Notes: generated from the sequence alone by a model not told the origin. DNA of 64,000 nucleotides from Bacteroidales bacterium (GCA_045576355.1 JAZNGG010000015.1:9123-73122); one strand, 5' to 3'; shown: positions 5,651-32,086, numbered from the stretch's first letter. A program made the numbers and translations.

Positions 5651-5670
5651 TTAAAAAACCTTTCCCCCTC

Positions 5671-5701: not shown

Positions 5702-5707
5702 TAAAGT

Positions 5708-5787
5708 TTAAGTTGAAAGATAGATGAAGCGTTGAGACGTTGCAGGGCAGATCGCCCTACATGTTTCGATGCTTCATCGCTTTTTTG
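5708..5787 (+). ncRNA. Candidate small RNA A (about 80 nt) ending in a long hairpin plus U-tract
   Basis: Hairpin at 5723-5778 (GATGAAGC...GCTTCATC outer stem, GGGC/GCCC apical stem) followed by GCTTTTTTG. Several G-U pairs exist only on the + strand. A paralog lies at 19255-19356 (-). Confidence 0.4.
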
Positions 5788-5878
5788 TCTCCCTGCACTC
5801 GGCCGTTCGGATGAAAATTCAATGGTCCGAAAGAGTCCATTCATAGAGTTTATTTGCTTAAAAGGCCGAGGCTTTTTA

Positions 5879-6032
5879 CTTCACGAGCGTACCCTCATTA
5901 TTCAACGAGCGTACCCTCGTTGGTCGATGAGCGTACGCTCGTTGTGCAACGAGGCTACGCGTGTTAAAAATTAGCCCCGCCGCGTTACACTAAATAAGCC
6001 AATGAAAATCTCATGAGAGCCAATGCGTGAAA
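5879..6032. repeat. 22-bp-period minisatellite, array A
   Basis: Units are CTTCACGAGCGTACCCTCATTA, TTCAACGAGCGTACCCTCGTTG, GTCGATGAGCGTACGCTCGTTG and TGCAACGAGGCTACGCGTGTTA (5879-5966). About 3 decayed units follow. Confidence 0.85.
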
Positions 6033-6224
6033 ATTTTCTCTTTTTCAACTTTTAGCTCAGACTTTACTATGATTTTCACTTTATGTTCAGATCCCTATTC
6101 AAAAAATCATTAAGAGGCATCCATTGTGTTAGGCTTCATACCGAACTATATGCAAAATCGGATAAAATGATATACGAAGATGGCATTTACATGTTAATTT
6201 TCTAAAAAACGATAGCTCAGGGCT

Positions 6225-6492
6225 GCGAGTTGAGAAGAGTACAGAGAACAGAGTACAGAGAACAGAGAAGCCATAGCGGACGAAGTCCCTTATTTGGTTT
6301 AGAAGTTTAAAGGTTTAGAAGTTTATTTTTTCAACCCTTCAACCCTTCAACCACTAAACCAACCATAGCCATCAGCCATAGCAGGACGCAACCCCTAAAC
6401 CACTAAACCACTAAACCACTCAACCACTCAACCCCTAAACCAACCATAGCCATAGCCATCAGCCATAGCAGGGCGCAGCCCCTAAACCCCTC
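6225..6492. repeat. Mosaic intergenic repeat locus R2
   Basis: A GA-rich run is followed by CCATAGCGGACGAAGTCC, then GGTTTAGAAGTTTA twice, CAACCCTT twice, CCATAGCC/CCATCAGCC units and ACCACTAA/ACCACTCA runs. The same words recur at R3, R7 and R8. Confidence 0.85.
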
Positions 6493-6594
6493 AACCCAAA
6501 AAGAGCGGCATGCCGACATAAAATCGACACACCGCCCCGTCCCACGCTGTTAGGATATTATCTATACAAGACCCTCAAAGAGGTCCCGCACAAA

Positions 6595-6759
6595 TTACAT
6601 ATTTTCGTACTCCAACCATGCAGCACCACGGTTTGAACCTTTCTGCATGGCATTCTCATCATCGAAAGAGGGTCCATTATTCACCCCGATAGAGGCAGAA
6701 ATGACATACTGTGGTTCGGCATAAATGACTTCTATCGTCGGTTTGCTATACTTTTTCAT
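6595..6759 (-). CDS. Possible small protein (54 aa), below the ORF-track cutoff
   Basis: ATG at 6759 to TAA at 6595, reading MKKYSKPTIEVIYAEPQYVISASIGVNNGPSFDDENAMQKGSNRGAAWLEYENM. It lies 59 nt downstream of the 1105-aa gene and is co-oriented with it. I recognise no homolog. Confidence 0.3.
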   Translation of the reverse strand: MKKYSKPTIEVIYAEPQYVISASIGVNNGPSFDDENAMQKGSNRGAAWLEYENM

Positions 6760-6818
6760 ATTCTGAATATTCTTATTATTTTGATCTTGTTTACGTTTTT
6801 TACTCTCTCGATATAAGA

Positions 6819-9800
6819 TTACTTCACGAGCACCTTCTTACCGCCCACGATGTAGAGACCCGGAGCCTTCACTTGCTCCACCTTCTGACCCTGGAGGTTA
6901 TAGATGTCGGCGGCATGCTGCTCTGCTGTTACACCTTCAATACCGGTCTCAGCAGTAGCGATACGCACCTTCGGTGCTGCGGCAGCTGCCGGGAGCACGA
7001 GGAATGCCTTATTAGCCGGGATGTAGCTACCTGTGTACTGATAGAATGCGGTCTCGCTGTCGATGGTAGTGAGCGCATAGATCGAACCACTGAAGTTGGA
7101 TGCAGCCGTACGCACTGCCACACCACTGAGATCTGACTCAACAGCTTCAGTCTCCCCGGTATAAGCCACCATATCGTAACTACCAGGTTCACCGGCAAGC
7201 ACCACACCGGTCTGAGCCGGGATATAACCCTCAGTAAGTTCAACGAGGCTGAGATAATCAGCGGCGTCAGACAATGCACCAACGTATGCTGTCAAACCTG
7301 CAGGCACCGCCACAGCATGATTAGCATAGAAAGTAGAATATCCGCTTTCGTTGATGGTGAGCGTAATGTTCTCGATAGGCTCATAGCATACGGAAATCAG
7401 CAAATTGGCTTGAGTACCTCCCGTACATGCAAAATCTATAGTATTAACAGCATTCACATTCTTGATCAAAAGGTTGCAAGCAGAAGTCGCTGTTTTATCT
7501 GTCAGTACGAGAGACTCTGAGATGATGTTATTCACATAGTCTCCATCTGCATATACACCCTCGATGGTTACAGCTTCGTCATAGTTAGAGTTACCGACCA
7601 AGCGAATATGTTTCAATTTATAACCTGCGTTAGGAGTAATCCGGAAACCTTTCACCTCTCCGGCAGTCTGACCTGTACGGATCTTCAGACCATCTGAAAT
7701 GTTGTTTCCGCTCTCTCCTCCGGCAATATAAGCACCGGGCACGGTATATGAGGTTCCGACATTATCCTTATTCGTTTCACTACCGTTTTCCTTAGTTACT
7801 GTTTCCCAATCAGCTGTCGTTGGATATACTACCTTAACAAGACTGATATAACCGGCATCTCCACCCACTACTATAGTATTCTTTGCGTCAGTACCGGAAA
7901 TCGTATAGCTGATGGTCTTACCCGCAGCGTAATCGGTACTACCCTCGATGGTGGTAGAAGACAACTCGTTATAGGCTGTAATAGTAACTATTGCGCCTTG
8001 ACAAGAAGGGAAACTAAATATGGTACCATTATTCACCTGTGCCCACTCATCAGAGCGACCGATATTATAGATTTTACCATTGGTTCCATCCAAATCAAGT
8101 TTGAGATCCATAGTAACACCTTCCACAGACACCTGTGTCACAAGAATTCCTTTTTTACCTTGATAATTCAAAGCAGGAGCACCATTTTTAGGTCCGAAAT
8201 ACCAATTAGCAGTTATAGGTTCATAATCATGTTTTGCCAATGACACAGTATTTTCTGTAAATACCGGGGTCAATGTGACATCTTCTGTGATAGTTACTTT
8301 GGCACCTATATTATAGGTAGTATTTCCATCGGTCCAACCGGTCAAGGTGTATCCCTCTTTATAGAGAGTCTTATTAGTCGGGATGGTAACCTGACCTCCA
8401 TTATCAACATATTCTACTTCAGGCACGATCCCTTCTACAGACTCTACAGAACCTAAACCATAAGCAACAACCAACAACTTCTCAAAATTTGCAGTCAAAT
8501 TGACATTGGCAGAAAGAGAAGCAATCGCGTAAGTTGCATTTTCAGAGATTACATTAGACTCTGCATCTGTCCAATTGACAAATTTATAACCCGTATTGGC
8601 ATTGGCTGTAAATGATACTGCTGTACCCTCGTCAAAACTTGAGCCGGCAGGAGACTGTGTAATAGTTCCTGCTTCTGCAGGAGAAACAGAAGTTGTCACT
8701 GTGTACTGTGGCACCTCTATAATTGTTCCGGCATACTCTCCCTCGATTTTCACATTGGCAAAACCGACATGCTTTCCTGGATCCAGGTTATAAACATAAA
8801 CGGTCAGATAAAAATCATCTGAAATAGCCTCAAATCCGGTAATATCCAACTCGAATGAAACATCTCCGGCATCACCATTATTACGAATCGGCTTGACTCC
8901 GGTAGCCAACGTTTTAGAAACATCATCTCCGGCACTCACAACGATATCAAACAAACCACCTCCGGTGCCGAAACGACAAATATCGGCACTCACTTTCTTC
9001 GGTGTAAATGTCAATCCACTTTTCAAATCCACTGCCCAAGAAAAAGAATGTCCGTTGGTCTTTTTTGTAACTTTTGCAGATGGAGTAGCAGTAGTGAAGA
9101 CTACACTATTATAACCGGTCTGTGCTTTTTGACCGGACATCTCTGATCCAAGAGAGAAAGATGCAGTAGAAACGACATTATCTACTGACACTTCGTATGC
9201 AGGAGTTGTAGTACCCTCACTCATCGTCCATGAAACAGCTACACTGGTAGTCTCTTCAAAATTGGCGGTCAAGTTAATGTCTGCAGAAACATTATCAATA
9301 GTATAAGAAGCATCCGTAGAGACTTCATTACCCTCGCCGTCTGTCCAGTTTTGAAATGCATAACCGGATTTAGCAGAAGCATTGAGTGTTACAGAACCGC
9401 CCTCATACACTTCAGTCCCGTTGGCTGGAGTTACTACACCGGCATCAGCAGGGTTTACAGATGTCGTAATTGTGTACTTGGAAGCTGAAAGAGAGACTAA
9501 CTCTCCGGTCAATTGCAACTTTTCAGCGGCAAGATATTTAGAATTACTACCAGCATAATAATAATAGACCTTAACATTTATGGCTCCTGTCAAATTACTA
9601 ACAGAAAGGTTCTCCGTAAAAGTCGAATTAGAAATAGATGAATTATTATAATTAGATACTGTATAGCTTTTGGGAGTATTAATAGTAGTAGCAACATCAT
9701 CTACAACATTCTCTACAAGCACTTTATAAGTAAAATTATTACTAACTAAAAAAACGGAGTACAACTGTGAAAGGCTCAAAGAATAACCATCTGGCACATC

Positions 9801-10136
9801 TAAAGTGAATCCAAAATAAGCATCATCTTTAAATTCGGATAAATTACCTCCATCATATTGAGATCTGAAACAATAATCAGGAACAGTAAAACCTACCGCA
9901 GATGAAGTTATAGTATAAATACTTCCTTTATTGGTATTTTGACTTGCTTTTGCACCTTTAATAGCAGTCACCGTCACCAAATCATTCTCCGAAGAGAAAA
10001 CTGCTTCGCTTGCGGTTTTAGCAGAGGTATCCAAAGTACGGGTTATACCCATTTTGAAGCTCTCAGCATACGCACTTCCTATGCCAGCGATCATCATCAC
10101 GATCGCGAAGAACAAATTAAGTAATTGTTTTTTCAT
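6819..10136 (-). CDS. Large T9SS-secreted surface protein with InlB-B-repeat and Listeria-Bacteroides-type repeats
   Basis: Signal peptide MKKQLLNLFFAIVMMIAGIGSAYA. Two InlB-B-like modules (YTITTSVNPADAGVVTP...GYAFQNWTD and YTVTTSVSPAEAGTITQ...GYKFVNWTD) and GYTLTGWTDGNTTY. The C-terminus is a T9SS sorting domain (...IYNLQGQKVEQVKAPGLYIVGGKKVLVK). Confidence 0.8.
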   Translation of the reverse strand: MKKQLLNLFFAIVMMIAGIGSAYAESFKMGITRTLDTSAKTASEAVFSSENDLVTVTAIKGAKASQNTNKGSIYTITSSAVGFTVPDYCFRSQYDGGNLSEFKDDAYFGFTLDVPDGYSLSLSQLYSVFLVSNNFTYKVLVENVVDDVATTINTPKSYTVSNYNNSSISNSTFTENLSVSNLTGAINVKVYYYYAGSNSKYLAAEKLQLTGELVSLSASKYTITTSVNPADAGVVTPANGTEVYEGGSVTLNASAKSGYAFQNWTDGEGNEVSTDASYTIDNVSADINLTANFEETTSVAVSWTMSEGTTTPAYEVSVDNVVSTASFSLGSEMSGQKAQTGYNSVVFTTATPSAKVTKKTNGHSFSWAVDLKSGLTFTPKKVSADICRFGTGGGLFDIVVSAGDDVSKTLATGVKPIRNNGDAGDVSFELDITGFEAISDDFYLTVYVYNLDPGKHVGFANVKIEGEYAGTIIEVPQYTVTTSVSPAEAGTITQSPAGSSFDEGTAVSFTANANTGYKFVNWTDAESNVISENATYAIASLSANVNLTANFEKLLVVAYGLGSVESVEGIVPEVEYVDNGGQVTIPTNKTLYKEGYTLTGWTDGNTTYNIGAKVTITEDVTLTPVFTENTVSLAKHDYEPITANWYFGPKNGAPALNYQGKKGILVTQVSVEGVTMDLKLDLDGTNGKIYNIGRSDEWAQVNNGTIFSFPSCQGAIVTITAYNELSSTTIEGSTDYAAGKTISYTISGTDAKNTIVVGGDAGYISLVKVVYPTTADWETVTKENGSETNKDNVGTSYTVPGAYIAGGESGNNISDGLKIRTGQTAGEVKGFRITPNAGYKLKHIRLVGNSNYDEAVTIEGVYADGDYVNNIISESLVLTDKTATSACNLLIKNVNAVNTIDFACTGGTQANLLISVCYEPIENITLTINESGYSTFYANHAVAVPAGLTAYVGALSDAADYLSLVELTEGYIPAQTGVVLAGEPGSYDMVAYTGETEAVESDLSGVAVRTAASNFSGSIYALTTIDSETAFYQYTGSYIPANKAFLVLPAAAAAPKVRIATAETGIEGVTAEQHAADIYNLQGQKVEQVKAPGLYIVGGKKVLVK

Positions 10137-10259
10137 TGTTGTTTGATTATGTTTTATTCGTGTTTGACTGCTTTAGCTTCTCACACAGACGGCTGATCGG
10201 AATATCGTTAATAATCAACAGATAAAGACAGCACATAGAGAAGACGGCTATTTAGGGTG

Positions 10260-10267
10260 CAAAGGTA
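10260..10267 (-). promoter_or_regulatory. -7 promoter box (TAccTTTG) for the 1105-aa gene
   Basis: The reverse complement of CAAAGGTA is TACCTTTG. It lies about 125 nt upstream of the ATG at 10136. Confidence 0.45.
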
Positions 10268-10380
10268 GAAAAAATAAACGAAAGTAACAAATATTTAGAA
10301 ACATAAACAACAATTATACACCACTTTGACCCTATTTTACTCCTTAAACCTCAAATCGGCAATTGGAGCAAAAGAATATT

Positions 10381-10548
10381 AAGTAAGAAAAAGAGCAAAG
10401 AGGAAACTGAAAACAAAGCCATAATCTATCGCCATCAGCCATAGCGGGCGCAGCCACAAGCCCTCGCCATAGCAGGACGAAGTCCCCCTGCCATAGCCAT
10501 AGCCATAAGCCATAGCGGGCGCAGCCCTTTAAACCCCTCAACCACCCC
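10381..10548. repeat. Mosaic intergenic repeat locus R3
   Basis: A GA-rich tract is followed by CCATCAGCCATAGCGGGCGCAGCC, CCATAGCAGGACGAAGTCC, CCATAGCC twice, CCATAGCGGGCGCAGCCC and finally TTAAACCCCTCAACC. Confidence 0.85.
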
Positions 10549-10690
10549 GGGTGTAATCCACAATTATTCCACCTATGAGAGAATTTCCACCTCCTATAAA
10601 AGGCGAAGCAACGGCTGAATCACTCAGACGTTGCCCCTAATTGTAGCTTATATACCATGAATTTACTGAAAAACAAATTATTTACGGGTG

Positions 10691-10698
10691 CAAAGATA
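10691..10698 (-). promoter_or_regulatory. Second upstream -7 box (TAtcTTTG) that would read through repeat R3
   Basis: The reverse complement of CAAAGATA is TATCTTTG. The GGGTGCAAAG context is shared with the box at 10260. Confidence 0.3.
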
Positions 10699-10765
10699 AT
10701 ATATTTCCAACAAATATCAGGTGTAATAATTGACCAAAATAGGGGGAAAATCGTTAGATTTAACT

Positions 10766-13700
10766 TTATTCCATATCATTTGATTCATTTTTAATACTAT
10801 TATCCTCCTCGCGGCTACGGTTCACTTTCTGTTTGTACTCCACCGGTGGCATTCCCATATCTCGCTTGAAGCACTTACTGAAATATTTCGGGTCAGAGAA
10901 TCCTACTTTATAGGCGACATTGGCCAAAGAATCTTCGCCGGCATTGATGAGCTGCACCGCCCGACGAATACGGATCTTACGGATAAAATCGACCGGCGGC
11001 ATCCCTAAGACGGACTTCACTTTCCGATAGAAGCTCGTACGACTCATGTTGAGCGCATCGGCAAAGTCCTCCACGGAGAGTAAAGGATTGGACATATTTT
11101 GCTCGAAGTAGTCCATCATCCGAGTAACAAACTCCTTGTCATAATCGACCACCTGCGGTGCAGAGAGCGGGATGACATGAGCCGCACCCTCCTTATCGTC
11201 ACTCCGCTCGGGGAGACAACTTGCCAGGAATGCCTGCTGCAACATCTGTCGCTGGTGGAGCAGATTATCTACACGGCTCCGGAGATATGTGGCACTGAAT
11301 GGCTTGGTGAGATAGTCATCGATGCCATGTTCCAGTCCCTCGATGCGGTCATCGATCGAAGACTTGGCAGAGATGACCACGATCGGGACATGACAGATGA
11401 GCGGATCGGCTTTGATGCGGCGCACCATCTCCATGCCATCCATCTCCGGCATCATGAGATCGGTCAGGATGAAGTCTATCTCCTCGCGCTTGACGATGTC
11501 CAGGCCCTCTTTGCCATTGGTTGCCTCCCGAAGTCGGTAGGTCGGAGCGAGGATCGAACAGATAAATTGACGGAGTTCCTCATTGTCCTCGACCACAAGG
11601 ATCGTGGCAGGACGCTGTGGCTTGCCTTTATTGGAGAGCGTGCCATTCTCCTTTTCTGCACTCACCTCTTCGTGCTCGTCCGCCTCTTTGCGCGTCTTCT
11701 CCTCAGTCTCTCCTATGACAAAATCGACCAGCGCATCATCGAGATAGGTCTCCCGTTTGCGGCTGAATGTCACCGTGAAGCATGTCCCTTCGCCCGGTGT
11801 ACTCTTGACATCGATGTGGGCATGATGGAGATGGACCAACTCTTTCACCAGAGATAGCCCGATGCCCGAAGAGGGCTGCATCTCACTGATCTCCGGGAGG
11901 GAGACAAAGCGCTCAAAGATCTTGTTGAGCTGCGAGGATTCGATGCCCCTGCCCTCGTCTGCCACAGCGACGCGCACTTCATCCTCAGAGACACGCATAG
12001 AGACGGTGACAGCCTTGCCGGCATCGGTAAACTTAAAGGCATTGGAGAGGAGATTGAAAATGATCTTCTCTACCTTATCGGCATCGAGCCAAAGCTCCAA
12101 TGTCTCGACCTCCACTTCCATGGTGTAACGGATCTGCTTTTCGCGAGCCTTATCGTCAAAGTATGACTTCACTTTCTGGAGCAGGGGGACTATGTCGGTT
12201 TGACTCAACGTGAGCCGGACGTGTCGGGTCTGTATCTTGCGGAAGTCGAGGATCTGATTGACCAACTCCAGCATCCGCGAAGTGTTTTTATGGGCGAGTT
12301 CGAGGTGATTACGAGCTTGCAGGGAGAGCGGTTCCTGCGCCAGGACATCGCTGATAGGACCGGAGATAAGGGTAAGGGGGGTGCGCAGTTCGTGAGAGAT
12401 GTCGGTGAAATACTTCATCTTGAGGCGGGATATCTTGCGCTCCACGTCCATCTTATGACGGAGTTTGAAGATATAAGTATATATATAGGTAACGATGGTA
12501 ATCAGCACAAAGAAGACCAGGAAGTAGAATAGCCAGCTCCATGGGGTCTCCCAGAAGTTACGTTCGATCTCGATGGAGAGCAGACGGGCATTGTCACACC
12601 AGATGCCATCATGATTGGTGGAGCGGACCTGCAGATGATGGGTCCCACCGGAGAGATTGACAAAATTGACTTTAGGGGCAGAAGAGTAGGTCCAGGGAGT
12701 CTCCTCCGTACCATCCATTTTGTAGGCATAACGGACCAGCGAGGAGGGCGAAAAGTCCAGAGCAGCAAAGGAGAGTCCGAAATCCCGCTGATCGGCCGAG
12801 AGGCGGAGGGTGTCCAGATCATTGAGCGGGATCTCCTCACGATTGGCATAGGAGACACCGGTGAAGACCACACCGGGTGTAAAACGGCTCTTTCGCAGAT
12901 GGTCATAAGAGAAGGTCAACGAACCGCCAAACAGGCCGGCGACCACTTTGCCGGACGGGTGGATGGCAGGCATTGCCTCTGTGAACCGATAATCGCGATC
13001 GAAGTCAGTGCGGTCATAATATTCAAAACGATGTTCCGCAGGATAATAACAAGAAAGGCCGCGACTTGCCACGATCCACAAACGATCATGGAGATCCAGA
13101 CAGGCAGAGAGCGAGACATCGCCTCCGGGGTTCTCCCGATTGAGATAGGTGTCAAAACAGAGTGAATCTGTGAGCAGGTTATCTCCCTGCACTTCGCTCA
13201 CCCCCAATCCATAGGTGCAGACCAATGTCTTCCCCTCAGAGGTGTAGGCGACAGCCATCACATCGTTGCCGGGCAAAGAGGCAGGATCAGCCGAACGATG
13301 GAAATGTTTATAGAAGATGATCTCTGCCGGACGTTCAAAGATGCCGGAGAAAGAGATCAGACCATCTGTCGTACCGACCAGGATGACCCCATCCCGGGCA
13401 CCGGTGATGCACCGGATGTTGTTAAAGTCGAAGTAAGGATAGTTCTGTAGGCGGTTGTTTCGGTTGTTGAAGCGCTGGCCTGTTCCCGTGATCGAAAACA
13501 CATTGAGTCCACCCCCATAGGTGCCAATCCATAGGTGCCGGCGCTCATCCTCATAAAGAGCATATACATTATTATTACTGAGGCTGAAACTGTTGTTGGC
13601 ATCATGCTTGAAGTGCTGTATCGTGATCGATCCATCAGGCTGAAACCAGATGCGATAGAGCCCATCACCTTTCGTCCCGACCCAAAGCGACTTACGTGAG

Positions 13701-15217
13701 TCGCGCAATATGGTGTAGATTCCCTCTGTAGAAAACCGAACCGGAGCATCACTCCAGTGACCAGAGGAAGAGAGATAACGGGGAGCACCGGACGTTTGAT
13801 CCCGATAATAGAGATGTCCCTCTTTGTTGCCATACCAGATCCGATCACCATCGGAATAGACGGCACGCACTTCGCTCTCGGAGATTTCCGGATGATGCTC
13901 AAACTGATGAGACTTGAAAGAGAAATGGAAAAGGTGTGCCGAGGAGACCCAAAGGTTTTTCTGGTTATCGACAAAAAAGCGATTGAAGTTGATCCAGGTG
14001 GTTTTGTCCGAAGCATGATCTAAAACCTCATCATATGGGCGCAGGGCGTCTGTCTCGGGGTCGTACCAGGAGAGAGGTCCCTCTTCGGGCTTGATCCAAA
14101 GGGTCGAGTTGCGATCCTCAAAAGCGACGTGCATACCCTCGAGTTGATTGGTTTGCTCATAGACACGCGGGGAAGCATACCAGCAGACCTTTTGCAGATC
14201 TGCGCTGATGCGATAGACCCCCTCACCCGAAGCATAGAGCCAGAGGTTCTTTTTATGATCGGCAAAGACATGTGAGACATAACGGATCTTCCTGCCATCA
14301 TCCGTCTCGGAGATGAGCTGAAATTCCGCTGTCCCGACATTATAGAGAAACAGTCCGGCATCTGTCCCGATGGCAAGCATCCCATCATCCAATTGATCCA
14401 TGTAGGAGATCCGCCGCACGACCGAAGGAAAGTTCAGAAACTTCACACGATTCTCCTGAGGGACATACTCCGCCAAATAACCATCTGAGGTGACGAGAAA
14501 AATCCTCCCATCCACTTCCCGGATGTCGGAAAAAGTATAGCCGGAGAGGGCACGCTTCTGCCCGTAGATATAGACTCCATGATCGGTCAATATCCACTCC
14601 CTGCCGGACGAGTCGTTGAAGAAGTCATAGACCAGACGTTCCTCAGTGCTACCGCCCTCATCCGATACATCTCCTAAGAAATAGTCAAAATCCGAGAGAT
14701 CATCGTCATTAAATCGGAGACATCCCCCTCCCTGCAGGGCAATCCAGGAGACATGCTTCTCCGGGAAATTGCAAATAGGATGCCACAACTTGGAGGCGAC
14801 CAGATAATTCTTACCAACGATCCGGGAAATATCCTCAAAATGGGATGTCGAAGAGTTAAAACGATAGAGTTTCAGATCGTGGGTGACACACCAGATGTTA
14901 TCCCGACTATCACTGGCAAGGCGTATGATGCGATTGGAAGATTGCGGGTTATCATTGCCCGGCTCAGACCGAAAGAGGAGAAAATCCTTACCATCATAAC
15001 GGCAAAGTCCGTTGCGCGATGCCATCCAGATAAAACCCTTATTGTCCTGATAAAAGTCCGCAATGTGCGTCTCCGTCAACTCGTTGCCGGGAGTGTATTC
15101 TTTAAACTTACACAGCGGACGGGCAGAAAGTGTCGCATCGGGTGCAATCCCAAAAACAGAAGTTAGGAACAAAAACGTAAAACAGAAATATTTCAATTTG
15201 GCAATACCCACTCTCAT
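10766..15217 (-). CDS. Hybrid two-component system sensor kinase/response regulator with AraC-type HTH (HTCS)
   Basis: Domain order is N-terminal beta-propeller/Y_Y_Y-type periplasmic region, TM segment, HisKA (ISHELRTPLTLI), HATPase (GIGLSLVKELV), receiver (ILVVEDNEELRQF...DLMMPEMDG) and AraC HTH (FSDPKYFSKCFKRDMGMPP). Confidence 0.9.
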   Translation of the reverse strand: MRVGIAKLKYFCFTFLFLTSVFGIAPDATLSARPLCKFKEYTPGNELTETHIADFYQDNKGFIWMASRNGLCRYDGKDFLLFRSEPGNDNPQSSNRIIRLASDSRDNIWCVTHDLKLYRFNSSTSHFEDISRIVGKNYLVASKLWHPICNFPEKHVSWIALQGGGCLRFNDDDLSDFDYFLGDVSDEGGSTEERLVYDFFNDSSGREWILTDHGVYIYGQKRALSGYTFSDIREVDGRIFLVTSDGYLAEYVPQENRVKFLNFPSVVRRISYMDQLDDGMLAIGTDAGLFLYNVGTAEFQLISETDDGRKIRYVSHVFADHKKNLWLYASGEGVYRISADLQKVCWYASPRVYEQTNQLEGMHVAFEDRNSTLWIKPEEGPLSWYDPETDALRPYDEVLDHASDKTTWINFNRFFVDNQKNLWVSSAHLFHFSFKSHQFEHHPEISESEVRAVYSDGDRIWYGNKEGHLYYRDQTSGAPRYLSSSGHWSDAPVRFSTEGIYTILRDSRKSLWVGTKGDGLYRIWFQPDGSITIQHFKHDANNSFSLSNNNVYALYEDERRHLWIGTYGGGLNVFSITGTGQRFNNRNNRLQNYPYFDFNNIRCITGARDGVILVGTTDGLISFSGIFERPAEIIFYKHFHRSADPASLPGNDVMAVAYTSEGKTLVCTYGLGVSEVQGDNLLTDSLCFDTYLNRENPGGDVSLSACLDLHDRLWIVASRGLSCYYPAEHRFEYYDRTDFDRDYRFTEAMPAIHPSGKVVAGLFGGSLTFSYDHLRKSRFTPGVVFTGVSYANREEIPLNDLDTLRLSADQRDFGLSFAALDFSPSSLVRYAYKMDGTEETPWTYSSAPKVNFVNLSGGTHHLQVRSTNHDGIWCDNARLLSIEIERNFWETPWSWLFYFLVFFVLITIVTYIYTYIFKLRHKMDVERKISRLKMKYFTDISHELRTPLTLISGPISDVLAQEPLSLQARNHLELAHKNTSRMLELVNQILDFRKIQTRHVRLTLSQTDIVPLLQKVKSYFDDKAREKQIRYTMEVEVETLELWLDADKVEKIIFNLLSNAFKFTDAGKAVTVSMRVSEDEVRVAVADEGRGIESSQLNKIFERFVSLPEISEMQPSSGIGLSLVKELVHLHHAHIDVKSTPGEGTCFTVTFSRKRETYLDDALVDFVIGETEEKTRKEADEHEEVSAEKENGTLSNKGKPQRPATILVVEDNEELRQFICSILAPTYRLREATNGKEGLDIVKREEIDFILTDLMMPEMDGMEMVRRIKADPLICHVPIVVISAKSSIDDRIEGLEHGIDDYLTKPFSATYLRSRVDNLLHQRQMLQQAFLASCLPERSDDKEGAAHVIPLSAPQVVDYDKEFVTRMMDYFEQNMSNPLLSVEDFADALNMSRTSFYRKVKSVLGMPPVDFIRKIRIRRAVQLINAGEDSLANVAYKVGFSDPKYFSKCFKRDMGMPPVEYKQKVNRSREEDNSIKNESNDME

Positions 15218-15366
15218 GATATATAAAGATTAATGTGTAAATGAGACAATAATGCAAAAGTACAATTTTTTTATGACGATACAAGTCTAAAAGAGAACTT
15301 TTCATGGACAACGGCTCTTTTTTTACTTAAATCGAGTTACAATTTGCAAAATACAATTAAAAATCA

Positions 15367-15374
15367 TACATTTG
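15367..15374 (+). promoter_or_regulatory. -7 promoter box (TAcaTTTG) for mscL
   Basis: Perfect TAnnTTTG about 30 nt upstream of the ATG at 15405. Confidence 0.5.
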
Positions 15375-15404
15375 CAGCGTAAAACCAATTAAAAAACGAA
15401 CAAT

Positions 15405-15839
15405 ATGGGAATGCTTAAAGAATTTAAAGAGTTTACCATGCGCGGCAACGTTGTCGATATGGCTGTCGGTGTGATCATCGGTGGTGCTTTTGGTAAAATC
15501 GTTTCTTCACTTGTTAATGACGTGATCATGCCTCCAATCGGTGCACTCATCGGTGGTATGGACTTTACTGATCTCAAACTCATTGTCAAAGATGCTGTGA
15601 TGAATGGCGAAGAGATCGTTAAACCGGCAGTTACACTTAACTATGGTAACTTTATTCAGGTCACTGTGGACTTCTTGATCATCGCGTTCTCTATCTTCAT
15701 GCTCATCAAGATGATCAATATGCTCAACCGCAAGAAGAAAGCCGAAGAGGCTGCTGCTCCTGCACCTCCGCCGGCACCGGCTGAACCCTCTGAGGACATC
15801 AAATTGCTCACAGAGATTCGCGACTTGCTGAAGAAATAA
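15405..15839 (+). CDS. mscL: Large-conductance mechanosensitive channel
   Basis: [44 protein letters not shown] is the canonical MscL N-terminus and TM1. Confidence 0.9.
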
Positions 15840-15868
15840 ACCAAGTCCTAATAATACATATATTATAT

Positions 15869-15906
15869 ATACAAATAGCTGCGTCCATGGTCGCAGCTAT
15901 TTGTAT
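15869..15906. terminator. Hairpin terminator after mscL (15-bp stem)
   Basis: ATACAAATAGCTGCG, loop tccatggt, CGCAGCTATTTGTAT. The 3' arm overlaps a TAtcTTTG box at 15904-15911. Confidence 0.7.
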
Positions 15907-15913
15907 CTTTGCG

Positions 15914-16170
15914 AGGGCTGATGGCTGCAATGGCTCATAGTGAGGGCTTATGGGGCTGCGCCCGCTATGGCTGATGGCGATAGCTTATAGCTTTGTTTTC
16001 ACCTTTCTCCTTTCCCCTTTCAGTTTTCTCCTTTCCTCTTATCAAGGCGCAGCCCCTTATCACGCGCAACCAACGACCAAAGAGAGTAACCCTTCAACCC
16101 CTCAGCCCCAAAACCCCTCAACTCCTAAAACCCTCAACTCCTAAACCAACAAACCAATAAACCAATAAAA
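15914..16170. repeat. Mosaic intergenic repeat locus R4 (two head-to-head modules)
   Basis: GGCTGATGGC/CTATGGC units and GGGGCTGCGCCC are followed by a CT-rich tract. Then come GGCGCAGCCCC, CGCGCAACCAACGACCAAAGAG and CCCTCAAC/CCTAAACC/CAACAAAC heptamer runs. Confidence 0.85.
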
Positions 16171-16225
16171 AAACTAAATTCTTGAATTTTTTTTGAGAAA
16201 CTCTTGCTATATTGTACAAAAGCAT

Positions 16226-16233
16226 TATCTTTG
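16226..16233 (+). promoter_or_regulatory. -7 promoter box (TAtcTTTG) for the Fur-family gene
   Basis: Perfect TAnnTTTG about 43 nt upstream of the ATG at 16276. Confidence 0.5.
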
Positions 16234-16275
16234 CAGCACAAACAAAAAGTGTAACGATTACAAAGAGTGTAAAAC

Positions 16276-16680
16276 ATGGAAGAAGCAAGAGCTATACTAC
16301 AGCAACATGACATCAAACCGTCTTATATGCGGATACTGATCATGCAATATCTGATGAAGCACCCTACTCATCCGACGGTGGATCGAATCTATCAGGACTT
16401 ATCTCCTGAAAATCCTACCCTCTCCAAGACTACAGTGTATAACACACTTAAACTTCTGGCAGAGAAAAAAGCGATCCTCTCGCTCTCCATCAATGAGAAA
16501 AATGCGCAGTATGATGGCGACACTTCTCCACACTCACACTTTCTTTGCCGCTCATGTGGGGCTGTAATGGATCTTCCGGCAGAGTTGATCTCCATCCCCA
16601 AAGAGGCCGAGAAAAAAGGACTCGAAATAGATGAAACGGAGCTCTTCTTTTATGGTCTCTGCAAAAATTGCAGAAAGTAA
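16276..16680 (+). CDS. Fur-family transcriptional regulator (PerR-like)
   Basis: Winged-helix N-terminus, then [15 protein letters not shown] and GLCKNCRK (CxxC pairs). It lies directly upstream of rubrerythrin. Confidence 0.85.
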
Positions 16681-16739
16681 AAGAGACCCGAAGTGAAAAT
16701 AACAACAACCTTATTACTAACTATAAAAAACTTACAACT

Positions 16740-17279
16740 ATGTCAAACAAATTGAAAGGAACAAAGACTGAAGCAAACTTGATGAAGGCATTTGCCGGTG
16801 AATCACAGGCTCGTAACAAGTACACTTACTATGCATCTCGCGCTAAGAAAGATGGTTTCGAACAGATCGCTGCCCTCTTCCAGGAGACTGCTGATCAGGA
16901 GAAAGAACACGCAAAGATGTGGTTTAAGTTCTTCCACGGCATTGGTGACACTGAGCAGAACCTCCTTGATGCTGCACAGGGCGAGAACGATGAGTGGACA
17001 GATATGTATCCTACTATGGCTAAAGAGGCTCGTGAAGAAGGCTTCAATGACATCGCCGACATGTTTGAATTGGTAGCTGCTGTCGAGAAAGCTCACGAGG
17101 AGCGTTATCGCAAACTTCTTGCCAACGTGGCAGGCAAACTCGTCTTCACTCGCGATGGAGACTGCATCTGGCAGTGCCGCAACTGCGGACACCTCCATGT
17201 AGGTAAAGAGGCTCCGAAAGTTTGCCCAACTTGCAAGCACCCACAGGCTTACTTCCAGTTGAAGGCTGAAAACTATTGA
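16740..17279 (+). CDS. rbr: Rubrerythrin
   Basis: Start trimmed to [32 protein letters not shown] (diiron four-helix bundle). The C-terminus is a rubredoxin-like WQCRNCGH...CPTCKHPQ. Confidence 0.9.
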
Positions 17280-17291
17280 TATTCACTGATA

Positions 17292-17333
17292 AAATAAACG
17301 GCAGCATCATCGAGATGCTGCCGTTTATTTTAT
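17292..17333 (+). terminator. Intrinsic terminator after rbr (17-bp stem plus T-run)
   Basis: AAATAAACGGCAGCATC, loop atcga, GATGCTGCCGTTTATTT, followed by TAT. Confidence 0.8.
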
Positions 17334-17334
17334 T

Positions 17335-17570
17335 GGTTTAGGAGTTGAGGGGTTGAGGAGTTTAGGGGCTGCGCCCCACTATGGCTGGGACTTCGTCCAC
17401 TATGACTGATGGCGATGGCTGGGGCAAAGCCCACTATGGCTGATGGCGATGGCTATGGCTTTCCACTTTTCGCTGTTCTCTTTTCTCTTGGAATATGGCG
17501 TTGTTTTCATCTTTCCTCTTTCCTCTTTTCTCTTTCCTCTGTACTGTCATATTTTTTTCTCACACAGAAA
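17335..17570. repeat. Mosaic intergenic repeat locus R5 (reverse orientation)
   Basis: GGTTTAGG/GTTGAGG heptamers, GGGGCTGCGCCCC, GGGACTTCGTCC, GGGGCAAAGCCC and CTATGGCTGATGGCGATGGC units, then a CT-rich tract and GTACTGTCATATTTTTTTCTCACACAGAA. It abuts the fmt stop codon. Confidence 0.85.
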
Positions 17571-17581
17571 TGCCAAGGCCT

Positions 17582-18571
17582 TCAACCGACAAAGTCCCAC
17601 GGACTCCAGCCATTGAGCAGCGAACGGATATCCATCCGTTTCTTGCCGGGCAACTGCACTTCAGTCAAGGCCAATACTCCATCGGCACAATGCAGATGCA
17701 GATAACTCTTACCATCACTCTCCACCTGCCCGACCCGAGCAGTATTATCTCTACCCTCACTGATCACCTTGGCAGCATAAACCTTAATCACCAACTTCTC
17801 ACCGGAAGAGGAGACCAATTCGGTCCACGCAGCCGGATATGGAGAGAGTCCACGTACCTTATTATATATATGTATCGCCGTATCGCTCCAATCGAGCCGA
17901 CACGTCTCTTTAAAAATCTTAGGAGCCGGACGCAACTCTGTCTGATCGTCATAGAGCGTAGTCTGATCGATCGTTTCAATGCGAGAGACATCTCCGTCAG
18001 CCTCCAATAGGAGATCGACAGTCCGCGTCACCAATCCCTTACCCATCATCATCATACGGTCATGTACCGAACCGACATTCTCGTCCGGAGCGATCGGAAG
18101 TTCCTCCTTTAAGATGATTCGTCCGGTATCTATCTCATGATCTAAGAAAAAAGTTGTGGCACCGGTCACACGATCCCCATTGATTACTGCCCAATTGATC
18201 GGAGCAGCTCCACGATATTGCGGAAGGAGTGCTGCGTGAAGATTGAATGTGCCCATGCGGGGCATATCCCACACCACTTCGGGCAACATCCTAAATGCTA
18301 CGACGATCTGCAAATCGGCTTTCCAGGATCGCAATGCCTCCAAAAAGTCCGGATCTTTAAGTTTCTCGGGTTGCAAAAGGGGCAGATCATGCGCCAAGGC
18401 ATACTCCTTGACCGGTGAAAACTGCAACTTGTGCCCTCGCCCTGCCGGCTTATCGGGCATCGTAATAACCCCTACGACATTATACCCTCCGGTGACCAAC
18501 GCATCAAGTGTCGGCACGGCAAATTCGGGTGTCCCCATATAGACTATCCTTAAATCCTCCTTTTGCATCAT
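17582..18571 (-). CDS. fmt: Methionyl-tRNA formyltransferase
   Basis: Start trimmed to MMQKEDLRIVYMGTPEFAVPTLDAL. Contains HAALLPQYRGAAPINWAVINGD. Confidence 0.9.
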   Translation of the reverse strand: MMQKEDLRIVYMGTPEFAVPTLDALVTGGYNVVGVITMPDKPAGRGHKLQFSPVKEYALAHDLPLLQPEKLKDPDFLEALRSWKADLQIVVAFRMLPEVVWDMPRMGTFNLHAALLPQYRGAAPINWAVINGDRVTGATTFFLDHEIDTGRIILKEELPIAPDENVGSVHDRMMMMGKGLVTRTVDLLLEADGDVSRIETIDQTTLYDDQTELRPAPKIFKETCRLDWSDTAIHIYNKVRGLSPYPAAWTELVSSSGEKLVIKVYAAKVISEGRDNTARVGQVESDGKSYLHLHCADGVLALTEVQLPGKKRMDIRSLLNGWSPWDFVG

Positions 18572-18699
18572 TATCTTACTCGTTTTAACAGGTGTGCACC
18601 ACCTAAATAACAAAAAATAGCGGTTTACTCAGGCAAATATAGCACACTCTTATGGTTTTTCCAAAGAAATCGATGAGTTCTTATTCGTAAGGGCGATAG

Positions 18700-18895
18700 T
18701 TAGGGGGTGCAGCCCTTAAAGCCGCTAAACGCATGACCGAAGGGAATAGATAACGCACGCTATAGCTTGCGTTTCCCCTCCGGAAGTGAAGCTCCGGGAA
18801 GCAGTTGCGCCCTGCGAGATCTGTGCGCTCGTGCAAAAAAATGGCGTACTTTTTAAAGAGAAAAAGTGAAAGCCATCTGCCATCGCCATTAGTTA
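18700..18895. repeat. Mosaic repeat locus R6a
   Basis: GGGGGTGCAGCCCTTAAAGCC, ACGCATGACCGAAGGGAATAGATAACGCACG, the hairpin ACGCA...TGCGT, GTGCAAAAAAATGGCGTAC, a GA tract and GCCATCTGCCATCGCC. These are related to modules at 19590-19760. Confidence 0.75.
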
Positions 18896-18991
18896 AAGTT
18901 TAAAAAATATTAACGCTCCATTGCCATCTCAGTTTGACAATTAAGGAGACGTCGGGCGAAGTTTTTAGGAAAAATGAAACAAGAAAAAATT

Positions 18992-19190
18992 TTCACTCAT
19001 CGGCTCGCGTAAGATCACGGATCGGCACGTGTTGTTTCACGCGTCGAGTCTCGTTACATAACGCGTCGAGTCTCGTTGCATAACACGTCGGCATGTGTTT
19101 AAACACGCGTAGCCTTGTTGCATGATTCGCGTAGCCTTGTTATGTCATGAGGGTAGCCTTGTTACGTCATGAGGGTAGCCACTTCAAACA
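18992..19190. repeat. 22-bp-period minisatellite, array B (about 8-9 units)
   Basis: The + strand units include TCACGCGTCGAGTCTCGTTACA, TAACGCGTCGAGTCTCGTTGCA, TAACACGTCGGCATGTGTTTAA, ACACGCGTAGCCTTGTTGCATG, ATTCGCGTAGCCTTGTTATGTC, ATGAGGGTAGCCTTGTTACGTC and ATGAGGGTAGCCACTTCAAACA. Confidence 0.85.
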
Positions 19191-19254
19191 CTTAAACCTA
19201 TGTTTTGTCTCACTCGAACCTATGAATTTTAGTGGGATAACAGAGTGTGAAGAC

Positions 19255-19356
19255 AAAAAAAAGATGAAGCATCGAAACATGGAGGGCGATTCACCCTATG
19301 ACGTCTCAACGCTTCATCGTTTACTACCCCTAAACTTGGGGTAATCACCAAAAATA
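19255..19356 (-). ncRNA. Candidate small RNA B (about 100 nt), paralog of candidate A
   Basis: Read on the minus strand: hairpin 19318-19263 (GATGAAGCGTTGAGACGTCATAGGGTGAATCGCCCTCCATGTTTCGATGCTTCATC) followed by T8 (19262-19255). The 5' segment differs from copy A. Confidence 0.4.
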
Positions 19357-19361
19357 TAATA

Positions 19362-19392
19362 CAAAGATACAACAATCAAAAGCCGATGTCAA
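19362..19392 (-). promoter_or_regulatory. Bacteroides-type promoter of candidate sRNA B
   Basis: Read on the minus strand: TTGACA (19392-19387) and TAtcTTTG (19369-19362). The block is nearly identical to 5671-5701. Confidence 0.5.
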
Positions 19393-19575
19393 GAGGGGAA
19401 AAGTTTTTTTAACAATTCGGTGCTGCGGCGAAAGAACAGAGAACAGAGGAAAGAGGAAAGATGAAAGGAGAAAGGAGAAAACGGATAGCCATAGTGGACG
19501 AAGTCCCTAAGCCATCTGCCATCGCCAATAGCCATAGTGGGCTTTGCCCCAGCAATAGCGGAGAATGATTTGGTA

Positions 19576-19728
19576 TTTTTGCACACAGAAGACACAGAAC
19601 CCGCGTAGCACACGACCGAAGGAAATAACACACAGAGCGCACATGTTTCGCAGTGCTTCCCTTCCGGATGGTAAACGCAAGCGTAAGCGTGCGTTTTCTG
19701 TGTATTTTATGTATTCTGTGTGCAAAAA
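19576..19728. repeat. 153-bp unit bounded by 15-bp inverted repeats
   Basis: TTTTTGCACACAGAA (19576-19590) pairs with TTCTGTGTGCAAAAA (19714-19728). An internal hairpin ACGCAAGC-GTAA-GCGTGCGT is present. Confidence 0.75.
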
Positions 19729-19833
19729 AAATGACAGTACAAAGAAAAGAGAAAAGAGAAAAGAGGAAAGGAGAAAACAAAGCAATCTGCCATAGTGGGC
19801 TTTGCCCCAGCAATAGCGGAGAATGACTTGGTA

Positions 19834-20018
19834 TTTTTGCACACAGAAAACACAGAACCCGCGTAGCCCACGACCAAAGGGAGTAAGACACAGACCACGC
19901 GTAGCACACGACCGAAGGAAATAACACACAGAGCGCACATGTTTCGCAGTGCTTCCATTCCGGATGGTAAACGCAAGCGTAAGCGTGCGTTTTCTGTGTA
20001 TTTTGTGTATTCTGTGTG
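19834..20018. repeat. Second inverted-repeat-bounded unit (with a roughly 30-bp internal duplication)
   Basis: TTTTTGCACACAGAA (19834-19848) pairs with TTCTGTGTG (20010-20018). The CGCGTAGCxCACGACCxAAG word is duplicated inside. Confidence 0.7.
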
Positions 20019-20400
20019 AGACAAAAACTGTAGAAGACGGCTTTAAGGGCTAAAAAAGGCAAAAAGGGCAAAAAGGCATCCAACCAACCGCATAGTAATA
20101 ACAAGAGTACAGAGAAAAGTGAAAGGAGAAAGGAGAAAGGAGAAAACAAAGCCATCTGCCATCGCCATCAGCCATAGTGGGGCGCAGCCCCTAAACTCCT
20201 CAACCCCTAAACCCCTAAACCAAACAGGGCGCAGCCCTAAACTCCTCAACCAACCACAAATCATTTTCAGTAAATATACACATTTTATGCGCCATAAATA
20301 TAAATTTCATACGTTTTCTGTATCTTTTTCCCATTATTTTGCTATTTTACCAAAAATTCTGCTTATTTTTGCGCCATTGATTAAAAAACTTTATGATGCT

Positions 20401-21894: not shown

Positions 21895-22096
21895 CACTCC
21901 GCAGAGAGTTCTCCCATGACCGATTGGGGATAAAACATAGGTGGTTTACACCATTAAAATAGTATGTCTATGAGGGTGGTAAATGGATACGTGTCGATGG
22001 CAGTGGTACTATAAACATCAAAGCTATCAAGTACGATAGGATTTAAGATTTCTACTTAAATAATAGGTCGTTATACTTGATTTCAGATAAAAGCAG

Positions 22097-22104
22097 TATC
22101 TTTG
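22097..22104 (+). promoter_or_regulatory. -7 promoter box (TAtcTTTG) ending only 4 nt before the yhcG-like ATG
   Basis: GCAGTATCTTTGCACTATG. This implies a leaderless or near-leaderless mRNA, or use of Met4. Confidence 0.45.
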
Positions 22105-22108
22105 CACT

Positions 22109-23164
22109 ATGAAACAGATGCAGATTCATAATAGCACAGATATTATTGCCGATATTAAGCAGATTATCGATCAAGCGAGAAAACAAGCATACACTTCGAT
22201 TAACACATTGATGATACAATCGAATTGGTTGGTGGGTCGTCGTATTGTGGAGGAAGAACAAGGTGGAGCTTCACGAGCTGAATATGGCAAGGCTCTGCTG
22301 AAGAATCTTGCCACCGAGTTGATGCCGATATACGGCAATTCATATTCAGCCCGTCGCTTGCAGGATTATCGTCAATTCTATCTTTATTGCAAGGATATAG
22401 AGAATTGGCACACGCGAGTGCCAAATCTTACTTGGACACATTATCGTGAATTGCTTACGGTTAGCGATGAGACTGCTCGTCAATGGTATATGCAGGAGGC
22501 AGCCAAAGAAATGTGGAGCGTCCGCACTCTTCACCGCAATATATCATCGCAATACTATTATCGTTTGTTGCAATCGCAAACAAAGGATGTGGTAATCGAT
22601 GAGATGAAACAGATTACAGCACCTATGCAGGGTGACAAGTTGGAGTTTATCAAGAATCCTGTTGTTGCAGAGTTTTTAGGGCTGGCTCCGAATACAAAAT
22701 TCTCTGAAACTGAATTGGAGAGTGCCATAATCACCCATCTTCAGAAATTCATTATGGAATTGGGGAAAGGTTATGCCTTTGTTGCTCGTCAACAACATAT
22801 CCGAACAGATATGGGCGACTTCTATATCGACCTCGTGTTCTACAACTACATTCTCAAATGCTTTATGCTTGTTGATTTGAAAACAGAGCAAATAAGTCAT
22901 CAAGATGTAGGGCAGATGGACATGTATATCAGAATGTACGATGAGTTGAAACGAACGGAGGGCGATAATCCGACAATCGGACTTATCCTTTGCTCTCGTA
23001 CAAGTGAGGATATGGCACGATACTCTATGCTTAAAGATAATGATCGATTGTTTCAAGCAAAATATCTCACATTCTTGCCAACAAAAGAGGAATTGACAAA
23101 TGAGATTGAGCGTCAAAAAATGATATTCAGATTGCAGCAAGAAAATGACACTCCCGAAGAATAA
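22109..23164 (+). CDS. PDDEXK nuclease domain protein, YhcG/DUF1016 family
   Basis: The N-terminal helical domain (NWLVGRRIVEEEQGGASRAEYGKALLKNLA...YRQFY) and the C-terminal PD-(D/E)xK core (FYIDLVFYNYILKCFMLVDLKTEQISHQDVGQMDMYI) are typical of DUF1016. Confidence 0.8.
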   Translation: MKQMQIHNSTDIIADIKQIIDQARKQAYTSINTLMIQSNWLVGRRIVEEEQGGASRAEYGKALLKNLATELMPIYGNSYSARRLQDYRQFYLYCKDIENWHTRVPNLTWTHYRELLTVSDETARQWYMQEAAKEMWSVRTLHRNISSQYYYRLLQSQTKDVVIDEMKQITAPMQGDKLEFIKNPVVAEFLGLAPNTKFSETELESAIITHLQKFIMELGKGYAFVARQQHIRTDMGDFYIDLVFYNYILKCFMLVDLKTEQISHQDVGQMDMYIRMYDELKRTEGDNPTIGLILCSRTSEDMARYSMLKDNDRLFQAKYLTFLPTKEELTNEIERQKMIFRLQQENDTPEE

Positions 23165-23384
23165 GTAATCGGGAGTGTTTCTGTATATGCGAAATAAATT
23201 TTGAGTGGCTTAGCTTTATTTAGGAAAATTGTTATACCTTTGTCGTACAAGAGTTATTTGAGAGTATTGCTACCGCAAACCGCAGAAATTCGCACGATTC
23301 CCAAATCGTTACCTCGCTCTTTTCAAAATAATTTCAAGTGTTCATTCTTCAAACGATTATATCAAATCGATGAAATATTTAAAT

Positions 23385-31917: not shown

Positions 31918-31998
31918 CGTTTTTATCTTGGAAAAAAGAAGTTTCTCTCTCTCTTTTCTCTCCCATGAGAGCCTTTCTCTCACCGTTCTGTCAGCCTA

Positions 31999-32086
31999 TA
32001 CACATTACACGGCAGCGTCATACACGTTACACGGCGGCGTCGTGCAAGTCACACGGCGGCATCATGCAAATACATTTCCGAAACAT
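31999..32086. repeat. 22-bp-period minisatellite, array D (different unit sequence)
   Basis: Units are TACACATTACACGGCAGCGTCA, TACACGTTACACGGCGGCGTCG, TGCAAGTCACACGGCGGCATCA and a decayed TGCAAATACATTTCCGAAACAT. The array is preceded by a CT-rich tract. Confidence 0.8.

Follow-up and report, generated by a model that had tools for sequence, protein, structure and literature searches.

Introduction

Does the intergenic segment at 19255-19392, which has an inverted counterpart in the same DNA, hold a gene for a regulatory RNA, and if so, which of its parts would carry the function? The initial annotation had proposed a pair of paralogous, trans-acting sRNAs in which a conserved promoter and terminator hairpin enclose different seed regions. 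To our knowledge, very few regulatory RNAs have been characterised in Bacteroidota. These bacteria lack Hfq, and the few regulatory RNAs studied in them control glycan use and gut colonisation.

The window, to which all positions refer, is the whole stretch of 64,000 nucleotides that was analysed. The host is an uncultured gut Bacteroidales of a Prevotella-like lineage, rich in plant-polysaccharide enzymes; for two of its proteins, the closest relatives with a name belong to metagenome-assembled genomes labelled 'Bacteroidales bacterium', 'Bacteroidaceae bacterium' and 'Prevotella sp.'. The evidence base consists of two loci in this 64-kb window and one near-identical strain variant (L014).

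Two inverted copies of a promoter-hairpin unit

Both loci were read and aligned, which bore out the proposed match between the reverse complement of 19255-19392 and 5671-5790. Copy B covers 19251-19413 on the minus strand and is the counterpart of copy A at 5650-5790. The features of the two copies, each read along its own strand, are as follows.

5650-5790, plus strand: sRNA unit of copy A (alignment, fold, covariance model 99 bits, -34.2 kcal/mol)
5671-5676 and 5694-5701, plus strand: promoter of copy A, TTGACA and TATCTTTG
5704-5722, plus strand: 5′ segment of copy A
5723-5778, plus strand: hairpin of copy A
5781-5786, plus strand: U-tract of copy A
19360-19413, minus strand: promoter block of copy B, with an A-tract, a -33-like TTGACA (19392-19387) and the -7 box TATCTTTG (19369-19362)
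19349-19356, minus strand: second -7 box, TATTTTTG, in copy B only, inside a 22-nt insertion (TAnnTTTG boxes thus at 19369 and 19356)
19319-19357, minus strand: 5′ segment of copy B, with UACCCC (19343-19338), loop AAGUUUA (19337-19331) and GGGGUA (19330-19325)
19263-19318, minus strand: long hairpin of copy B, with 18-nt arms (19318-19301 and 19280-19263) and a 20-nt apical part that contains a 6-bp stem
19255-19262, minus strand: U-tract of copy B, 8 T, with the hairpin a predicted intrinsic terminator

The near-identity of the promoters was confirmed: 47 of 54 positions are the same between 19413-19360 and 5650-5703, and all seven differences lie outside TTGACA and TATCTTTG. Both copies read cTTG(ACA), 17 nt, TAtcTTTG, which is the canonical Bacteroidota promoter, with a perfect TATCTTTG in each. 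The block of copy B scored 10/12 in the promoter scan and its box also appears in the list of TAnnTTTG matches. In the window, 35 of the 45 TAnnTTTG occurrences are intergenic, and the motif is found within 200 nt upstream of 17 of the 37 genes, mostly 30-130 nt before the start codon. Judged by this placement, TAnnTTTG is clearly a promoter box in use in this organism, in agreement with the published Bacteroidota consensus (bioRxiv 10.1101/2024.04.05.588293; PMC11697453). Downstream of the promoters of copies A and B, the first 785 nt are free of protein genes. A third promoter match, at 28265, is weak and lies within a gene; it was judged to be due to chance.

Copy B differs by its second -7 box, TATTTTTG, located 13 nt 3′ of the first. 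The 22-nt insertion that carries it looks like a tandem duplication of the -7 region. With two -7 boxes available, the 5′ segment of copy B could be either ~41 or ~27 nt long.

A conserved, strand-specific long hairpin

The hairpin is 56 nt long. Its 5′ arm, GATGAAGCGTTGAGACGT, lies at 5723-5740 in copy A and 19318-19301 in copy B, and its 3′ arm, ATGTTTCGATGCTTCATC, at 5761-5778 and 19280-19263. As had been reported for the outer stem, the arms are identical between the copies (36/36); the window holds two occurrences of the arm 18-mer, where 0.02 would be expected. The two apical differences described initially were found as well: a C-G pair in copy A is a U.G pair in copy B, so that pairing is kept, and an A.C mismatch in copy A is a G-C pair in copy B. 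All in all, the apical changes are one-sided, with pairs kept or gained and no compensatory double change.

To what extent this identity exceeds that of the surrounding DNA can be read from the rest of the duplicated region, where copies A and B agree at 165 of 259 positions (0.64). At this flank identity, 36 identical positions out of 36 in the arms have P = 9e-8, and at least 47 out of 54 in the promoter block have P = 1e-4. Conservation between the copies is thus concentrated in the signals, that is the promoter, the strand-specific hairpin and the U-tract. The apex enclosed by the invariant arms is identical at 13 of its 20 nt only, a contrast which argues for selection and against gene conversion.

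On the proposed strand, copy B folds at -45.9 kcal/mol (z = -7.1) and copy A at -39.3 kcal/mol (z = -5.5), whereas the opposite strands reach only -27.7 and -28.6 kcal/mol. Four of the 18 arm pairs are G.U, which makes the fold strand-specific. A covariance model of the hairpin likewise gave 99-107 bits on the proposed strand versus 40-47 on the other (107 versus 40 for copy B), and the search with this model found no further hairpin copies in the 64-kb window. Among 111 hairpin-plus-T-run sites in the window, those of copy A (-34.2 kcal/mol) and copy B (-32.4 kcal/mol), with 24 pairs each, are the most stable; the next best, at -23.8 and -19.3 kcal/mol, are ordinary terminators.

The stem is the most conserved part of the unit, and a plain terminator would not be expected to need sequence identity. 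With the stem sequence fixed and its apex drifting, a role as terminator through structure alone becomes less likely; a partner that recognises the sequence may be involved, either a protein or RNase III acting on the 24-bp duplex. Reading frames through the unit are not conserved between copies A and B, being broken by indels directly 3′ of the hairpin.

The 5′ segments share an exposed heptamer

The least conserved part is the 5′ segment, with 10 of 19 positions identical and a 22-nt insertion in copy B. The segment of copy B is indeed longer (27-41 nt, versus ~19 nt in copy A) and has a hairpin of its own, UACCCC-AAGUUUA-GGGGUA. The heptamer AAGUUUA is common to both segments: in the alignment, the AAGTTTA of copy B corresponds to 5704-5710 of copy A. 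It is predicted to be exposed in both RNAs, at the extreme 5′ end in copy A and in the 7-nt hairpin loop in copy B.

The proposal of different seed regions therefore stands in part. The rest of the 5′ segments does diverge, but AAGUUUA is shared and the extra sequence of copy B is mostly the duplication of the -7 box; to read the two segments as different seeds appears overstated. Moreover, a fixed stem beside a variable 5′ end would be atypical for seed-driven sRNAs. Target prediction covered 36 translation-initiation regions in the window (~2% of a genome), and none of them scored better than shuffled sequences.

The candidate sRNA unit is the leader of a larger repeat module

The duplicated unit had been taken to be the sRNA module of 120-138 nt. 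This had to be revised: the homology spans a mosaic of ~400-450 bp, which runs for another 260-290 bp 3′ of the terminator, a point missed in the initial annotation. The order is the sRNA unit, which forms the leader, a spacer of ~90 nt, a 22-bp tandem array and a tail. Identity between copies A and B is 61% in the spacer, 62% in the array and 68% in the tail. The homology ends at ~6053 (copy A) and ~18970 (copy B), beyond which identity is 46%, as for aligned unrelated sequence.

5791-6053, plus strand: spacer, 22-bp array (5883-5953) and tail of copy A
19163-19254, minus strand: post-terminator spacer of copy B, 61% identical to 5791-5882
19039-19180, minus strand: 22-bp arrays of copy B, of two unit types (19109-19180 and 19039-19090), from Tandem Repeats Finder and as repeat family D12
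18970-19038, minus strand: tail of copy B (68% identity), with the conserved island GAGCCGATGAGTGAAAATTTT
47779-47940, plus strand: partial copy C, with a -7 box at 47779, the GGTTTAAGCTGAAG pre-array segment and 4.7 units of the 22-bp array

The tail island conserved between the copies centres on GTGAAAATTTT. In copy C, the array (47820-47932) and the pre-array segment are related to those of copies A and B; it has no long hairpin and is thus sRNA-less. In strain L014 the array of module B is one 22-bp unit longer (L014:495-516 compared with window position ~19085), which indicates that it behaves as a minisatellite. A derivation of the hairpin from array units was considered and rejected, the similarity not being significant. 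Likewise, the arrays were rejected as a conserved RNA structure: those of copies A and C fold on both strands and that of copy B not at all.

Arrays with a 22-bp period occur at five loci of the window, three of them homologous (A, B and C) and two with unrelated units (31998-32069 and 58201-58253). The array at 31998-32069 precedes a GH31-esterase-GH43 gene string, at 80-150 bp upstream of its TATCTTTG box. Its position makes it plausible that it provides direct-repeat sites for a regulator of the AraC type or of the hybrid two-component type.

In both tails there is a GTG-start ORF of exactly 28 codons (6027-6113, plus strand, MKIFSFSTF...; 18910-18996, minus strand, MKIFSCFIF...). Another frame of both tails holds a Phe-rich mini-ORF of 10-11 codons (6021-6053, plus strand, MRENFLFFNF; 19002-18967, minus strand, MSENFFLFHFS). 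These tail ORFs, although the GTG ORFs are equal in length, are probably a by-product of T-rich sequence.

The ends of the modules were also inspected and have only weak A/T-rich similarity. IS5-type terminal inverted repeats (GAGACCTTTGCA-like, up to 2 mismatches) gave five matches in the window against 5.8 expected, none of them near the modules.

Neighbourhood and distribution

The modules lie in a carbohydrate-utilisation neighbourhood, with genes for GH43, a DUF5107 protein and a hybrid two-component sensor. Locus B could be compared with relatives. In the window (18572-20400), the genes for acetyl-CoA hydrolase and fmt are divergent and separated by ~1.8 kb of repeat-rich DNA that includes module B. 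A related species (L022) has an fmt protein with 93% identity and an acetyl-CoA hydrolase with 97% identity; there, fmt comes head-to-tail after the hydrolase gene, the two being 105 bp apart and no module lying between them (L022:373-466). This difference in gene order places module B at a site of recent rearrangement or insertion. In the fmt relatives found (77-93% identity), the neighbours are other genes and the module is absent; in relatives further away, fmt is preceded by a chloride-channel gene. An inversion between A and B was rejected as the cause of the fmt rearrangement, as its reversal does not restore the L022 order (hydrolase then fmt). For the DUF5107 protein, the best relative is 69% identical, too distant for a comparison of loci.

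The searches for further members covered RNA families, genomes, metagenomes and proteins. With Rfam 15 there was no match in the whole window at gathering thresholds and none for locus B at E up to 10; for locus A at E up to 10, three sub-threshold chance matches were obtained (two miRNA families and a ClpQY promoter), FopS/GibS not being among them. The exact 18-mer of the arm had 13 matches in 185,579 GTDB species genomes (one genome per species), about the chance expectation, and the 3′ arm was found in none of these genomes. A wobble-tolerant arm pattern had no match in IMG/VR or in JGI metagenomes, and the promoter block a single chance match in JGI metagenomes, within a coding region. 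Module B returned nothing by blastn against plasmids and phages. Finally, a concatenated six-frame peptide query, aimed at spurious ORFs called over homologous hairpins, returned nothing from 5.8 billion predicted proteins at E up to 10.

The sole other occurrence among these searches is in strain L014 (Logan run DRR768612), which is 98% identical over 1 kb. Assembled independently from another sample, it bears out the position of module B next to fmt. Over ~1 kb a single base is substituted, by a C-to-A change in the otherwise invariant 3′ arm of the hairpin, which breaks a G-C pair; the U-tract has one extra T (9 T versus 8 T). The organism is also carried in Logan runs DRR773891 and DRR773901, and the related species with the 93% identical fmt in ERR15157040/41. 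The candidate sRNA family, which rests on two loci, appears to be lineage-restricted.

Comparison with known systems

In Neisseria, the Correia (CREE/NEMIS) elements are small repeats of intergenic DNA, with inverted-repeat arms that form long hairpins as RNA. Repeats of this type can carry promoters, terminate transcription and be cut by RNase III. They are present in high copy number, and their terminal inverted repeats and TA duplications are clear. Compared with this description, the hairpin here is 56 nt, the copy number seen is low and there is no duplication.

Closer parallels exist within the Bacteroidales. Like FopS/GibS of Bacteroides thetaiotaomicron (PMC11697453, PMC7366714), the units described here are multicopy candidate sRNA genes of a Bacteroidales host with canonical TAnnTTTG promoters, and they share the location in a carbohydrate-utilisation neighbourhood. 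The organisation is also alike, with a canonical promoter, a single-stranded 5′ part and a terminator hairpin, all predicted in the present case. Both copies have a sigma-ABfr promoter, TTG(ACA)-N17-TATCTTTG, and a Rho-independent terminator composed of the hairpin and 6-8 U. FopS has a conserved 5′ seed (R1′) with variation downstream, and is conserved across Bacteroidaceae (PMC11697453, PMC7366714). Here, by contrast, the pattern is the reverse, with a fixed stem and a variable 5′ part, and the hairpin is found in one lineage only; it is also far longer than in FopS/GibS (24 pairs, -32 to -34 kcal/mol). Of the known systems, the unit would by analogy work most like the FopS/GibS type. It is not to be counted as a member, given the lack of an Rfam match and the opposite pattern of conservation.

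The whole module, on the other hand, resembles BrickBuilt of Porphyromonas gingivalis, which has ~19 dispersed intergenic copies per genome and is reported only in P. gingivalis and P. gulae (PMC4596501). Going by the description of its layout, in both a leader is followed by tandem repeats with no spacers (23 nt in BrickBuilt, 22 nt in the window) and then by a tail. In the window this corresponds to 22-bp arrays flanked by a leader and a tail that are homologous between copies A and B, copy C having the array and pre-array segment only. Further points in common are the Bacteroidales host, the strictly intergenic location, the existence of copies with partial or absent leader or tail, a repeat number that varies between copies and strains, internal promoter elements and a host range confined to a species or genus. 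BrickBuilt differs in being defined by IS5-type ends; neither these nor target-site duplications were found here. A promoter-hairpin-terminator sRNA unit in the leader has not been described for BrickBuilt, and the copies here, counted in the 64-kb window, are two full and one partial.

Paralogous sRNA genes or a repeat acting in cis

The conserved promoter, strand-specific hairpin and U-tract, together with the lack of a conserved ORF, make an independent transcription unit the simplest reading. The initial claim of paralogous trans-acting sRNAs is in this respect sustained; what has to be given up is the simple picture of different seeds. Our best explanation, which we hold tentatively, is that copies A and B are paralogous genes for a lineage-restricted candidate sRNA of ~85-110 nt, whose transcription, action in trans and use of the stem we infer from the sequence. 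Each copy would be transcribed from the canonical housekeeping promoter of Bacteroidota, and each transcript would end at an unusually long hairpin (24 pairs, G.U included) followed by the U-tract. The RNA would most likely act in trans by pairing through its exposed 5′ part, in which AAGUUUA is common and the rest divergent; the start regions of mRNAs are the presumed partners, this being the default mode for such an RNA in Bacteroidota. The sequence-fixed stem would give stability and is probably also a recognition element for a protein or RNase III. As these genes form the leaders of intergenic repeat modules of ~400 bp, the family would spread and evolve as part of a repeat element. On the whole, what the repeat module carries may be described as a new candidate sRNA family whose general kind is known.

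Should it prove to be expressed, an uncultured, Prevotella-like Bacteroidales lineage would have a new sRNA family, and the coupling of an sRNA gene to a repeat module with a minisatellite would illustrate the origin and spread of new sRNA paralogs. At present this orphan prediction, made from two loci, is of value in that it offers transcript mapping a well-defined candidate.

The main rival starts from the module as a whole. The 400-bp unit may be an intergenic mosaic repeat like BrickBuilt, in which promoter and terminator act in cis (to insulate, terminate or drive the neighbours) and the short RNA is a by-product with no function in trans. Several observations point this way: the homology continues through spacer, 22-bp array and tail; copy C has an array and its own -7 box with no hairpin; the copy number of the array differs between strains; the intergenic DNA is full of other repeats; and locus B was recently rearranged or inserted, L022 having no module between hydrolase and fmt. 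Hairpin A is, in addition, the only terminator-like site after the DUF5107 gene, and BrickBuilt has promoter activity besides the same succession of leader, 23-nt tandem repeats and tail (PMC4596501). Against it, there are neither terminal inverted repeats nor target-site duplications at the modules, no IS5-type repeat lies near them and no transposase is encoded in the window, where only two full copies and one partial copy occur in 64 kb. More to the point, a terminator acting in cis needs structure but not 36 identical positions out of 36 with the G.U pairs kept, and the selective conservation of the promoter boxes contrasts with the 64% identity to which the rest of the module has drifted. 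We therefore regard this explanation as rather unlikely.

A reading that combines both aspects makes the module a new class of Bacteroidales mosaic repeat with its own sRNA gene. Function would centre on the perfectly conserved 18-bp stem with its G.U pairs, which RNase III or a dedicated RNA-binding protein could recognise; copying of the module would leave the 5′ end free to vary, and the 22-bp array, in which each unit spans two helical turns, would bind a protein and in this way adjust expression. This more elaborate scheme we consider improbable; if true, it would describe a repeat element that makes and diversifies regulatory RNAs.

The conserved inverted repeat could also act as DNA, as a protein-binding or recombination site that perhaps inverts the 13.4-kb segment between the modules. 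The copies are indeed inverted and flank 5790-19250, the gene order at fmt is unlike that of L022, and the arm sequence is conserved without covarying. Yet four of the 18 arm positions are G.T or A.C mismatches as DNA, the symmetry being good only as RNA and on one strand; there is no recombinase nearby and no remnant of the module at the other breakpoint. Together these points leave the proposal quite improbable. Still harder to sustain is a leader or attenuator acting in cis, in which the hairpin would be a regulated terminator for downstream genes. Copy B does lie upstream of fmt on the same strand (~640-685 nt, according to the start codon chosen), but 70 nt before its start fmt has a TATATTTG box of its own, and in relatives it is expressed with no such leader. 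Copy A has no co-oriented downstream gene, the next genes converging on it, and neither an alternative antiterminator fold nor an Rfam riboswitch could be seen; we hold this explanation to be very unlikely.

Finally, the idea that the unit encodes or controls a small peptide, such as a type I toxin-antitoxin pair or a leader peptide, draws on the ATG codons of the 3′ arm, at which short hydrophobic ORFs start in both copies, and on the 28-codon GTG and Phe-rich 10-11-codon ORFs of both tails, but it is barely credible, as indels directly after the hairpin break the frames between the copies, the Phe richness results from T-runs, complementarity between sRNA and tail is not found in both copies (P ~0.02, marginal, in A; ~0.38 in B) and no database protein matches any of the six frames.

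Other repeats and variable segments in the window

The same set of short repeats was observed in many intergenic regions of the window, including every one between 5 and 20 kb. It is made of an 8-bp CCCCTAAA-type run, which is telomere-repeat-like, 7-bp GAGAAAG runs, GCCATAGCCATC runs and a GGGGCTGCGCCCC hairpin. The related species (L022) has these short repeats too, and public short-read assemblies break there.

5480-5650, 6230-6520, 10390-10545, 15944-16180 and 17325-17560: short-repeat regions
19430-19560, 19730-19800, 20100-20260, 61980-62010 and 63380-63560: short-repeat regions

Next to module A, and directly downstream of the gene for a 1105-aa surface protein with Listeria-Bacteroides repeat domains, there is a 54-aa ORF (6595-6759, minus strand, MKKYSKPTIEVIYAEP...). 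It has no Pfam match; its occurrence in identical form on 20 contigs from many samples indicates that it is probably a real small gene. The contigs with this gene all end in simple repeats before module A.

The plus strand at 19531-20030 holds a tandem pair of units, 258 and 296 bp long and 95% identical, the second having a 38-nt internal duplication. Each unit has a perfect TAnnTTTG box (19574 and 19832) and a small hairpin with a U-run. They share ACATGTTTCG..TGCTTC with the 3′ arm of copies A and B; their scores with the covariance model do not exceed 16-17 bits, and their folds reach a z of only -2 to -2.8. The two units may represent another sRNA-like pair, divergent from copy B.

A last difference between strains concerns 21960-23384, a 1.4-kb segment with a gene for a YhcG/DUF1016 PDDEXK nuclease (22109-23164). 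It is absent from the 99%-identical strain L025 and is a strain-variable insertion.
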